Source: a virus (Duplodnaviria > Heunggongvirae > Uroviricota > Caudoviricetes). From it: 8,206 bases of DNA. The notes below the pieces were generated by a model. It worked only from the letters and a program-made list of their open reading frames with translations. It did not search any database and was not told where the DNA came from. The position numbers were made by a program, and so were the translations under genes. Positions 2,809-8,206 of this stretch are shown here, one piece after another. Within the stretch, counting starts at the first letter, position 1, and every line of letters begins with the position of its first letter. Where the stretch lies: IMG/VR virus record IMGVR_UViG_2585427776_000003. The stretch is one strand, 5' to 3'.

Positions 2809-3891
2809 TTAGAACTGGTAAACCATACCTACAGCAACGATATCATCGGTAGCAACGCCAGATGCTTTCGTGAAATCGCTCTTATCAATCAGGTTGATTT
2901 TGTAATCAACAAAAGTGGACATATTTTTGTTGAAGTAATAGGTTGCACCTACATCAATATATTCAACCAGGTCCTGATCACCCCACGCACCCAAGTCTTT
3001 TCCTTTAGATTGCAGGTAAGCAACGGACGGACGCAGACCGAAGTCGAACTGATATTGTGCAACTACTTCGAAGTTTTGTGCTTTGTTGGCAATATGGTTA
3101 TTACCAAAAACAGTCATGTTCTGGGTTTCAGAATAGGTGGTAGCCAGATAGATGTTGTTCGCATCATATTTCAGACCAGCTGCCCATACTTCAGCATTTT
3201 GACCAGATGCATTCAGGCTGTTGTTACCGTAGATAACCTGATTATTAGTGCGGTCAGATTTAGCATAGGTTGCACCTACACCGAATCCTTCATACTCATA
3301 AGTAGTGGAGAAACCGAAACCATCACCATTAGCTTCAGTTACGTCAGTGCGGTCATTTTTACCCTGATACTGAGCAGCAAAGTTCAGACCATCAACCAGA
3401 CCAAAGAAGTCGTTGTTACGATAAGTTGCAACACCAGTGGTGCGACCAGTCATGAACACATCTGTTTGGGTCCAGGTATCGCCACCGAATTCTGGCAGAA
3501 CGTCAGTCCACGCACCGATGTCATATGCTACACCGTAGTTACGGCCGTAATCGATTGAGCCGTAGTCCCCGAATTTCAGGCCTGCAAATGCAAGACGGGT
3601 TTTGTCTTTGGAGGAGCCTTGAGATTCAGCGCGGTTGCCTTTGAATTCATATTCCCACTGACCGAAACCAGTCAGTTGATCGTTGATTTGGGTTTCACCT
3701 TTGAAGCCAAGACGGGCATAAGTAGTATCACCATCATCTGCATCATTAGAGGAGAAGTAGTGCTTGGCATTAACTTTCCCATATAGATCCAGCTTGTTAC
3801 TGTCTTTATTATAAATTTCAGCTGCCTGAGCAGACATCGCCATCAGTACTGATGCAGCTACAGCAGAAATTGCCACTGTTAATTTTTTCAT
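2809..3891 (-). CDS. nmpC: OmpC/OmpF/PhoE-family general porin (NmpC/OmpD-like), apparently intact
   Basis: Signal peptide [23 protein letters not shown], then mature N-terminus [17 protein letters not shown]. Aromatic/Gly-rich beta-barrel pattern and C-terminus ...GMVYQF with the terminal Phe typical of OMP barrels. Start taken at ATG 3891 (complement); the track ORF to 3951 adds 20 unlikely residues. Confidence 0.93.
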
Positions 3892-4478
3892 CGTGAGCCC
3901 TTTTTTTGAACTATTATTAAAAAATGATGTCACTGCGCGATAAATATTCATCTAATCAATGTGATTATTTCAAGATGTAAGTTTTAGTTTCTCATTTAAT
4001 TTGTGAAGTAGATCTCTATTTTTATCTGAACTTTTTCTATCGAAACCTATTTGTGGCTCTTATTTGAACAAAAGTAAACCTATTAGCTAATTTATATTAA
4101 TAGTTGTTATTTATGGAGGCTCTATAATTCGGCAGTTTAATTTAAATCAACTAAAAATAACGCCTGAAATTATTTATTGGTTATTTGTTGAGGTTTTCTT
4201 ATGTATTTGTGGTGGTGTTTTGAACACTCGGTAGCATTCTCATAAATATCATTCAGTGGTTTACGTACGTAAAAAATTGGTTATGCTGTTAAGAGTGGTT
4301 ACTTCGTCACACAGCTTAAACCCGCCGTCGAGCTGGTTTTTCCATTTTCTGAGTCTCGATATTAGCTGATAACTCAATACCTGAGTTATTCACTGACTCC
4401 GAGTCTGTTACGTTTCTGCTTTTTTGCGATACGTTGTATTCCCTCAATTTACACCCGCTTTGTCTGCGAGGTGGGGTT
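3892..4478. promoter_or_regulatory. AT-rich intergenic region (~590 bp) upstream of nmpC on the minus strand and upstream of the lysis cassette on the plus strand; promoter(s) not resolved
   Basis: Visibly AT-rich with many A/T runs (3900-4260 especially) and no convincing ORF. The minus strand contains GGTTTACTTTTGTTCAAATAAG (plus-strand complement around 4059-4080), which resembles OmpR-box half-sites of porin promoters. Confidence 0.4.
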
Positions 4479-6960: not shown

Positions 6961-7167
6961 ATGAATAAAGAACAATCTGCTGATGATCCCTCCGTGGATC
7001 TGATTCGTGTAAAAAATATGCTTAATAGCACCATTTCTATGAGTTACCCTGATGTTGTAATTGCATGTATAGAACATAAGGTGTCTCTGGAAGCATTCAG
7101 AGCAATTGAGGCAGCGTTGGTGAAGCACGATAATAATATGAAGGATTATTCCCTGGTGGTTGACTGA
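6961..7167 (+). CDS. ybcW: YbcW-like small protein (68 aa); function unknown
   Basis: ATG at 6961 with GGAG 8 nt upstream. Product [68 protein letters not shown] has no TM segment and is predicted mostly helical. Confidence 0.7.
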
Positions 7168-7331
7168 TCACCATAACTGCTAATCATTCAAACTATTTAG
7201 CCTGTGACAGAGCCAACACGCAGTCTGTCACTGTCAGGAAAGTGGTAAAACTGCAACTCAATTACTGCAATGCCCTCGTAATTAAGTGAATTTACAATAT
7301 CGTCCTGTTCGGAGGGAAGAACGCGGGATGT

Positions 7332-7526
7332 TCATTCTTCATCACTTTTAATTGATGTATATGCTCTCTTTTCTGACGTTAGTCTCCGACGGCAGGCTTC
7401 AATGACCCAGGCTGAGAAATTCCCGGACCCTTTTTGCTCAAGAGCGATGTTAATTTGTTCAATCATTTGGTTAGGAAAGCGGATGTTGCGGGTTGTTGTT
7501 CTGCGGGTTCTGTTCTTCGTTGACAT
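7332..7526 (-). CDS. ylcI: YlcI-like small basic protein (DUF3950), possible ribbon-helix-helix-type DNA binder
   Basis: 64-aa ORF MSTKNRTRRTTTRNIRFPNQMIEQINIALEQKGSGNFSAWVIEACRRRL... has a basic N-terminus, then a short beta-like segment (RNIRFP) and a helix, a pattern reminiscent of Arc/MetJ/CopG folds. Convergent with ybcW; its start lies about 200 bp from cosN. Confidence 0.7.
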   Translation of the reverse strand: MSTKNRTRRTTTRNIRFPNQMIEQINIALEQKGSGNFSAWVIEACRRRLTSEKRAYTSIKSDEE

Positions 7527-7725
7527 GAGGTTGCCCCGTATTCAGTGTCGCTGATTTGTATTGTCTGAAGTTGTTTTTACGTTAAGTTGATGCAGATCAA
7601 TTAATACGATACCTGCGTCATAATTGATTATTTGACGTGGTTTGATGGCGTAGATGCACGTTGTGACATGTAGATGATAATTATTATCATTTTGCGGGTC
7701 CTTTCCGGCGATCCGACAGGTTACG

Positions 7726-7737
7726 GGGCGGCGACCT
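7726..7737 (+). other. cosN 12-nt cohesive-end sequence GGGCGGCGACCT (terminase nicking site)
   Basis: Exact match to the lambda 12-nt 5' overhang as I recall it, flanked by lambda-like cosQ-side sequence (CGACAGGTTACG). Confidence 0.85.
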
Positions 7738-7775
7738 CGCGGGTTTTCGCTATTTATGAAAATTTTCCGGTTTAA

Positions 7776-7890
7776 GGCGTTTCCGTTCTTCTTCGTCGTA
7801 ACTTAATGTTTTTATTTAAAATACCCCCTGAAAAGAAAGGAAACGACAGGTGCTGAAAACGAACTTTTGGGCCTTTGTCGTTTCCTTTCT
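7776..7890 (+). other. cosB: gpNu1 binding sites R3 (about 7776-7791), R2 (about 7838-7853, inverted), R1 (about 7875-7890), with an AT-rich IHF-type bend site between R3 and R2
   Basis: Three copies of the CGTTTCC core (GGCGTTTCCGTTCTTC; GGAAACGACAGGTGC on the opposite strand; TTGTCGTTTCCTTTCT) in the lambda arrangement. Exact site boundaries are approximate and from memory. Confidence 0.7.
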
Positions 7891-7914
7891 CTGTTTTTGG
7901 CCGTGGAATGAACA

Positions 7915-8206
7915 ATGGAAGTCAACAAAAAGCAGCTGGCTGACATTTTCGGTGCGAGTATCCGTACCATTCAGAACTGGCAGGAACAGGGAATGCCCGT
8001 TCTGCGAGGCGGTGGCAAGGGTAATGAGGTGCTTTATGACTCTGCCGCCGTTATAAGATGGTATGCCGAAAGGGATGCTGAAATTGAGAACGAAAAGCTG
8101 CGCCGGGAGGTTGAAGAACTGCGGCAGTCCAGCGAGGCAGATCTCCAGCCAGGGACTATTGAGTACGAACGCCATCGACTTACGCGTGCGCAGGCCGACG
8201 CACAGG
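7915..8206 (+). CDS. nohD: terminase small subunit, lambda Nu1 type, 3'-partial (runs off the window)
   Basis: ATG at 7915. Product MEVNKKQLADIFGASIRTIQNWQEQGMPVLRGGGKGNEVLYDSAAVIRWYAERDAEIENEKLRREVEELRQ... has the winged-HTH N-terminus of lambda gpNu1. No stop before the window end, which is why it is absent from the ORF track. Confidence 0.93.
   Translation, partial: MEVNKKQLADIFGASIRTIQNWQEQGMPVLRGGGKGNEVLYDSAAVIRWYAERDAEIENEKLRREVEELRQSSEADLQPGTIEYERHRLTRAQADAQ

Follow-up and report, generated by a model that had tools for sequence, protein, structure and literature searches.

The ylcI gene beside the cos site of a DLP12-type prophage and its probable ribbon-helix-helix product

What is the function of a small gene that lies next to the packaging site of a lambdoid phage, on the strand opposite to the late operon? 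This question is raised by ylcI, which is present in a stretch of 8,206 nt (the window) from IMG/VR virus record IMGVR_UViG_2585427776_000003 (Caudoviricetes). The window (8.2 kb) represents the right arm of an E. coli prophage of the lambdoid, DLP12 type, and from 7170 to 7900 it matches the right end and cos of phage lambda with 98% identity. The YlcI/YnfO family is kept in Pfam, NCBIfam and PHROGs without assigned fold or function, and ynfO was still uncharacterized in the 2024 y-ome survey. We consider it reasonably likely that YlcI is a small ribbon-helix-helix (RHH) protein of the Arc/MetJ superfamily that acts as a sequence-specific transcriptional regulator, and that its gene is an accessory gene and no part of the packaging machinery.

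The ylcI gene and the predicted fold of its product

The window gene is ylcI itself, which is already catalogued. It is flanked by ybcW and nohD as in K-12, and near-identical prophages of E. coli have it in RefSeq as ylcI, 'YlcI/YnfO family protein'. Its 64-aa product (MSTKNRTRRTTTRNIRFPNQMIEQINIALEQKGSGNFSAWVIEACRRRLTSEKRAYTSIKSDEE) is 100% identical to that of an open reading frame (ORF) of phage lambda (NC_001416, complement 48112..48303), which is not annotated in either of the two lambda reference records. The protein belongs to the YlcI/YnfO family, as seen from its matches to Pfam DUF3950 (PF13132; E=1.9e-20, 72.8 bits versus a cut-off of 25), to NCBIfam NF041551 YlcI_YnfO_N (E=1.6e-9, 37.6 bits versus a cut-off of 30) and to phrog_949 (E=2.5e-35). 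A 1.3-kb query comprising ybcW, ylcI, cos and the nohD start had matches in 4824 of 5426 complete genomes, in 1008 of them with at least 80% query coverage.

Copies from Shiga toxin (Stx)-converting phages and a related prophage show 81-86% identity to residues 1-52 of YlcI. Between lambda-type and Stx-type copies the likeness starts exactly at the ATG, and the DNA 5' of the ATG is unrelated. The Stx-type copies carry a strong Shine-Dalgarno (SD) sequence (GAGGAAAGAAA-ATG), the lambda-type gene a weak SD-like GGGG 7 nt 5' of its ATG. For codons 1-52 the ratio of nonsynonymous to synonymous substitution rates (dN/dS) between the two types was 0.04-0.13, with dS values from 0.8 to beyond saturation. 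Because the family profiles match, dN/dS is this low and homology begins at the ATG next to unrelated flanks, ylcI is a true protein-coding gene, subject to strong purifying selection, and no chance ORF. RNAseq data for K-12 show an overlap of the convergent ybcW and ylcI transcripts (PMC12288877).

The family is narrow: among 5.8 billion sequences, 1165 clusters were found at E<=1e-3. At 50% identity these gave 142 representatives, of which most were lambda DNA reads with frameshifts; this exhaustive representative search left about two dozen usable homologues that are truly divergent. Hundreds of ORF 'variants' in public collections (proteins P0001-P0120 and most of P0121-P0259) lie on contigs of ~3.5 kb, some of them labelled Staphylococcus, Veillonella or Campylobacter, and many are frameshifted or extended. 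These contigs look like lambda sequencing-control DNA, and their size would fit a right-end lambda amplicon. Such variants inflate the apparent diversity of the family.

YlcI contains the motif K-x-IRFP...NFSAWVxEAC. In an alignment of 24-27 diverse members I15, R16, F37 and V41 are invariant, and F17, I25, S38, W40, A44 and C45 are kept in at least 90%; R16 is the sole residue that is invariant across both subfamilies. In two AlphaFold2 monomer runs residues 13-18 were extended and followed by helix A (19-32), a four-residue loop and helix B (37-62). The strand-helix-helix topology of ~45 residues that characterizes the RHH superfamily was thus found in two models of moderate confidence, which also resemble solved RHH domains, further down the ranking those of HP0222, VapB12, SvtR, PcfF, XACb0070, HicB, Omega and AmrZ. 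Foldseek lists (PDB and BFVD viral models) were likewise dominated by RHH proteins.

For a comparison at the level of sequence profiles, we aligned a 37-sequence profile of both subfamilies with single reference sequences by hhalign; those of Arc, Mnt, NikR and CopG were confirmed against PDB. Arc was matched with 69.7% probability (P=4e-5), Mnt with P=0.006, the N-domain of NikR with P=0.007 over 39 columns and CopG with P=0.02 over 33 columns, all four in the expected register. Seven non-RHH controls (Cro, Xis, Rop, Nu1-N, HU, AbrB-N and cII) gave P values of at least 0.2. Residues N14-I15-R16-F17-P18 of YlcI were aligned on N11-L12-R13-W14-P15 of Arc, and R16 corresponds to the base-contacting Arg13. 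Other searches contributed little: HMMER runs of the protein and two family profiles against PDB sequences and against Pfam found nothing significant beyond DUF3950, a search of Pfam with all 37 alignment members, at a relaxed threshold, did not point consistently to any RHH family (two weak PSK_trans_fac and one weak RHH_6 match), and a HicB-like PHROG match was weak.

In our view an RHH fold of YlcI is very probable. By structure the protein can be filed in the RHH superfamily; by sequence the support is marginal. An earlier note on this DNA had described a 64-aa ORF beside cos on the opposite strand, starting about 200 bp from cosN, and had seen a basic segment, a beta-strand and a helix in its product. 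This description agrees well with our data: the ORF is present, the distance from its ATG (7526) is 200 bp to cosN and 170 bp to cosQ, five of residues 1-13 are K or R, NIRFP is predicted to be extended, and helices follow it in the models.

YlcI is not simply another Arc. Its sequence resembles Arc and Mnt of Salmonella phage P22 only marginally (hhalign gives 70% probability for the single Arc sequence), helix B has its own NFSAWVxEAC signature with a near-invariant Cys, unlike Arc and Mnt, and Pfam keeps YlcI outside the Arc family. Arc and Mnt have defined operators in immI, whereas none is assigned to YlcI. Compared to RHH proteins of the CopG, NikR, PutA, ParD or HicB type, YlcI has neither an effector domain nor a toxin-binding one, its tail is short and variable, and no partner gene is consistently adjacent.

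A probable regulatory function of YlcI

The best indication of a function comes from relatives in satellites that resemble phage-inducible chromosomal islands (PICIs). These satellites, with integrase, AlpA, primase and capsid or small terminase subunit (TerS) genes, contain one or two members of the YlcI family each, and the YlcI-like genes are divergent from the first gene of the primase/packaging operon, which encodes a 67-aa 'transcriptional repressor' PHROG. A second satellite subfamily (MATGSTNNKSQQLNARFPHDVV...GESKAQFIVTAVKGEIKRRQRRK) also bears the name YlcI/YnfO at NCBI. At locus L085 (5545-5589) a perfect 12-bp palindrome, TGGTACGTACCA, is present twice, 33 bp apart, around a TATAAT; the ATG that adjoins the second copy starts a gene for a 60-aa YlcI-like protein, divergent from the 67-aa repressor-type gene. 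In other satellites the putative operators are GTG[CA]ATCGCAC (three copies) or GTGCACAAACAC (three copies). This layout is that of an autoregulated small repressor, and L085 looks like a textbook divergent switch region. Since the satellite relatives occupy a divergent regulatory slot behind palindromic operators, a regulatory role of YlcI, which the earlier note had offered as one of two options, is the best-supported reading.

The satellite relatives resemble the divergent switches of PICIs and temperate phages (cI/Cro-like or Stl/Str-like), with a small repressor opposite and palindromes between. The phage copy in the window differs from these switches: it lies at the late-operon/packaging junction and not in an immunity or early-control region, and its divergent neighbour is a terminase gene and no regulator partner. 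In two records, long coding sequences annotated as 'hypothetical protein' and 'transcriptional repressor' run antisense across YlcI-like ORFs (L083 8578-9552 in LR881103; L084 4435-5109 in OR544138). They look over-extended, and only their C-termini (..VFAG[KR][IL]P..), which are common to both, presumably resemble short Icd-like proteins.

We infer dimerization, DNA binding and a regulatory function of YlcI as follows. Two subunits would pair their RNIRFP strands to an antiparallel ribbon that reads the major groove, while contacts to the DNA backbone would come from the basic N-terminal arm and from Ser38, which caps the N-terminus of helix B. YlcI would most likely be a sequence-specific transcriptional regulator, probably a repressor that works like Arc, Mnt or CopG-type repressors. 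As an accessory (moron-like) gene of the lysis/packaging junction, opposite to the strand of the late operon, ylcI would be transcribed on its own at a low level.

Several points weigh against this view. Confidence of the AlphaFold2 models is moderate (predicted local distance difference test 64 and 69, predicted template modelling score 0.33-0.37), the models are monomers in which the defining intersubunit ribbon is not formed, and no individual sequence or Foldseek match of YlcI was statistically significant. Read counts for ylcI and ynfO are very low in W3110 (PMC10164565 supplement), and on the ylcI strand of the spacer between ylcI and cosQ a promoter scan detected nothing like a sigma-70 site. 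In the searched literature we found no experiment on the YlcI family and met ylcI only in tables of mutations. As for an operator of the phage copy, none was identified beyond a single candidate, the inverted pair ATCAATTA-N17-TAATTGAT, which is absent from the Stx-type copies. The flanks of lambda-type and Stx-type copies have no motif in common beyond chance (11 common 9-mers versus 7.2 expected, 2 common 10-mers versus 1.95), though the strand residues are identical.

The candidate pair is kept in lambda, Qin and Kati. A third copy of ATCAATTA is found inside the 3' end of ylcI (7349-7356), so that the window holds 3 copies versus 0.51 expected window-wide, all of them no more than 280 bp from ylcI. 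A comparison of 77 lambda-type upstream regions for operators was uninformative, since these regions are nearly invariant.

Alternative roles at the packaging junction

The other option of the earlier note was that a DNA-binding protein encoded beside cos modulates packaging. YlcI would then bind near cos and tune terminase access, cos cleavage or termination of packaging. In lambdoid phages ylcI is always on the strand opposite to the late operon, directly before the first packaging gene, and this holds for different modules: its neighbour is a Nu1-type terminase gene in lambda, DLP12, Qin and Kati, and in Stx-type phages the start codons of ylcI and of an HNH-TerS(Terminase_2)-TerL (large subunit) module are 41 bp apart. 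With the L085 prophage, three types of packaging module (Nu1/A, HNH-TerS-TerL and that of L085) have the gene in this spot, and several phages have only the segment of ylcI and cos in common with the window.

In addition, two independent relatives carry, as a fusion, the N-terminal DNA-binding portion of a small subunit of the Terminase_2 type. Both fusions, P0255 (120 aa; L085 6001-6363, plus strand) and P0198 (129 aa; L089 4714-5103, plus strand), are complete proteins encoded in the regulatory slot of PICI-like satellites, and consist of a YlcI-like domain and the first ~53 profile positions of Terminase_2, the DNA-binding domain of the small terminase. The fused TerS domain has 64% identity to the TerS of the neighbouring resident prophage and 53% to that of the satellite itself. 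Upstream of the L085 fusion gene there are four or five GTTTAACAC-type repeats.

The L085 satellite (CP027459.1; L085 8040-8881 and 6641-7876) apparently lies inside an Stx-like prophage, after a 93-aa N-terminal terL fragment, and insertion at this place would disable the prophage's own packaging. The resident prophage terS is split into pieces of 61 aa and 89 aa just upstream. An insertion of the satellite in terS itself was considered and rejected: the PHROG matches show terS to be merely split, with the satellite located behind the terL fragment.

Against a packaging role, the same block of Fur box, cosQ, cosN and Nu1-type gene is present in a CFT073 prophage with a different leftward gene and without ylcI. 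Packaging of lambda in vitro is known to need terminase, IHF, gpFI and proheads only. The DNA upstream of ylcI is unrelated between the phage types while the residues predicted to read DNA are identical, and divergent family members are found beside TonB-receptor, cytochrome bd, cdtABC, fimbrial and integrative and conjugative element (ICE) genes, in operons outside phages. The function of cos is defined by the subsites cosQ, cosN and cosB within ~200 bp, and the ORF lies outside of these (PMC4669245). A cos accessory factor should co-occur with cos and have a kept target near it, which does not hold for ylcI. Only its position ties ylcI to DNA packaging, and the satellite TerS fusions keep a weak link. 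Because of the recurrent place beside three kinds of packaging modules and these fusions we do not drop the packaging role, yet hold it to be improbable; the closeness of ylcI and cos is better explained by a mosaic junction.

A further alternative starts from the satellites: the phage copy could act on satellite operators, repressing or triggering them, or could be a satellite-derived gene captured by phages. It is in agreement with this that phrog_949 covers the phage copies and both satellite subfamilies, that the satellite copies are in the regulatory slot, that one satellite resides within the very prophage that carries a ylcI copy, and that the inventory of E. cloacae capsid-forming PICIs (cf-PICIs) includes YlcI/YnfO proteins (PMC13612085). 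The strand residues differ between the phage and the satellite subfamilies, which makes shared operators unlikely, and no satellite-type palindrome was seen near the phage gene, so that we see only a slim chance for such cross-talk.

YlcI could also be an antitoxin-like protein, or a regulator specific for a DUF1398 partner (YbcV/YdfO), in a two-gene module. In Qin and Kati a DUF1398 gene follows the ynfO/ylcI-type gene on the same strand, in Qin directly as ydfO (L096 1757-2458), whereas in lambda, DLP12 and the window ybcW lies on the opposite strand between ylcI and the DUF1398 gene (ybcV in the window). This arrangement suggests an insertion into an ancestral two-gene unit. The adjacency is nevertheless restricted to Qin and Kati, and Stx-type and satellite copies have no DUF1398 neighbour. 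No PADLOC defence or toxin-antitoxin model matches YlcI, YnfO, YbcV, YdfO or YbcW, and DUF1398 has no known toxicity. A type II antitoxin would be expected in one operon with an adjacent, co-oriented toxin gene; the gene next to ylcI, ybcW, is on the other strand. We therefore regard this alternative as unlikely.

That ylcI is a spurious or decaying ORF without a product, conserved merely through the nearby cos, would fit the missing lambda annotation, the weak SD, the lack of a consensus promoter in the lambda-type copy and the very low RNA counts, but is effectively refuted by the dN/dS values with saturated synonymous sites, the homology bounded by the ATG, the strong SD of the Stx-type copies and a motif that is kept down to ~35% identity in other genera and contexts.

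Fur box, non-phage relatives and context of the window

The earlier note supposed that the promoter region of ylcI would overlap the cosQ side of cos. Next to cosQ, the spacer between ylcI and cosQ contains a perfect core of a Fur box (Table 1), which is unique in the window (0.01 expected by chance). A perfect core, TGATAATnATTATCA, is also present in K-12 DLP12 and in Qin (L095 2095-2109, L096 1594-1608) and in lambda (48452-48466). A site at -233 of nohA emerged from an in vivo selection and gave an in vitro gel shift with Fur, and a cluster at nohB was predicted (PMC2189734); the site in Qin is this published, gel-shifted site and is identical to that in the window. In CFT073 a Fur peak was mapped by ChIP-exo (chromatin immunoprecipitation with exonuclease treatment) at the homologous sequence and was assigned to the nohD unit and to a divergent leftward unit, the genes of which are increased by 2.3-2.9 log2 in a fur deletion (PMC10164565 supplement). 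For ylcI and ynfO in W3110, the tiny counts fall, and do not rise, in the fur deletion strain (PMC10164565 supplement). The literature credits the Fur site to nohA/nohD, and it is equally within the upstream region of ylcI.

The sole promoter-like site in the spacer is on the plus strand (7663-7690, GTGACA-16-TATCAT, 10 of 12 matches) and directed toward cos and nohD. Its -10 element falls inside the Fur box, and it would be a candidate for an iron-repressible rightward promoter just 5' of cosQ. In the CFT073 prophage (L094 1655-2665) the position of ylcI is taken by a 106-aa ORF, an internal start of which looks like that of a signal peptide (MKIRNILAISLATSSFSCLA...). A gene for a 'TonB family protein' is nearby, and both adjoin the Fur-bound site.

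The most divergent DUF3950 members are located outside phages. They follow a TonB-dependent receptor gene (accompanied by DUF2946 and CopC) or cytochrome bd genes, are neighbours of cdtABC, or belong to a fimbrial/restriction island or an ICE-like region. Two divergent DUF3950 genes (L097 and L102/L103) are part of chromosomal clusters that both include DUF2946, one together with a TonB-dependent receptor and CopC, the other with cytochrome bd subunits and DUF2474. These clusters may represent a metal-related regulatory niche of the YlcI family outside phages. For YlcI itself a metal-sensing role, considered in view of the Fur box, the near-invariant Cys45 and the TonB-receptor, CopC and DUF2946 neighbours of two divergent members, was not adopted: the lambda-type protein lacks His19, which is common among relatives, and has no ligand domain.

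In the left part of the window the transposase-like ORF at the edge is followed by ybcN, ninE, ybcO, rusA, ylcG, quuD and, on the other strand, an OmpC-like porin gene; the right part holds essD-rrrD-rzpD (with Rz1), bor and ybcV (both minus strand), ybcW (plus), ylcI (minus), cos and the start of nohD. Gene names follow a nearly identical record from E. coli; for the transposase-like ORF we relied on the ORF list alone. The porin ORF (2809-3951, minus strand; ORF list only), between quuD and the lysis genes, is unbroken with 380 aa; its K-12 counterpart, nmpC, is disrupted by an insertion sequence. An Rfam scan of the window found no RNA family.

Table 1. Coordinates of ylcI, its predicted segments and neighbouring features in the window.
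Feature	Position	Strand	Remarks
ylcI ORF, 64 aa + stop	7332..7526	-	ATG start at 7526; DUF3950 / YlcI-YnfO family; lambda counterpart at complement 48109..48303
Codons 1-12, basic Thr-rich N-terminal arm MSTKNRTRRTTT	7491..7526	-	unstructured in models
Codons 13-18 (RNIRFP), predicted ribbon strand	7473..7490	-	
Codons 19-32, helix A	7431..7472	-	from models
Codons 33-52, G-S-G-N loop and conserved part of helix B (NFSAWVIEAC)	7371..7430	-	
Codons 53-64, variable C-terminal tail	7335..7370	-	differs between YlcI, YnfO and Stx-type copies
ylcI-to-cosQ spacer	7527..7695	-	presumed ylcI promoter region
Inverted pair ATCAATTA-N17-TAATTGAT	7596..7628		70-102 bp 5' of ylcI ATG; candidate operator only
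Perfect 7-1-7 Fur-box core TGATAATTATTATCA	7675..7689		149 bp 5' of ylcI ATG; 6 bp from cosQ; centre 233 bp 5' of nohD
cosQ GGGTCCT	7696-7702	+	context boundary, outside the gene
cosN cohesive end, 12 nt GGGCGGCGACCT	7726-7737	+	context boundary, outside the gene
nohD start (Nu1-type small terminase subunit)	7915..8206	+	divergent from ylcI; runs past the window end
ybcW	6961-7167	+	between ylcI and the DUF1398 gene ybcV
Transposase-like ORF, 229 aa	70-759	+	left edge of the window, 5' of nin-region genes

The window gene is ordinary in kind, and our result is mostly a clarification. The lambda reference annotation omits a gene which strong purifying selection maintains and which bears an annotation in thousands of E. 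coli prophages. Placing DUF3950 and the YlcI/YnfO proteins among the RHH binders leads to a testable hypothesis, that of a small regulator with a short operator. As a long shot, YlcI-family RHH proteins could be a regulatory currency common to lambdoid helpers and cf-PICI-type satellites: the satellite switch, alone or as a TerS-like fusion, would sense or interfere with the start of packaging by the helper, and the phage counterpart would cross-regulate satellites or guard the cos-proximal region. The observations on the satellite switch and on the TerS fusions are the parts most worth following, and the regulatory slot together with the fused TerS domain offers concrete entry points for studying satellite switching.
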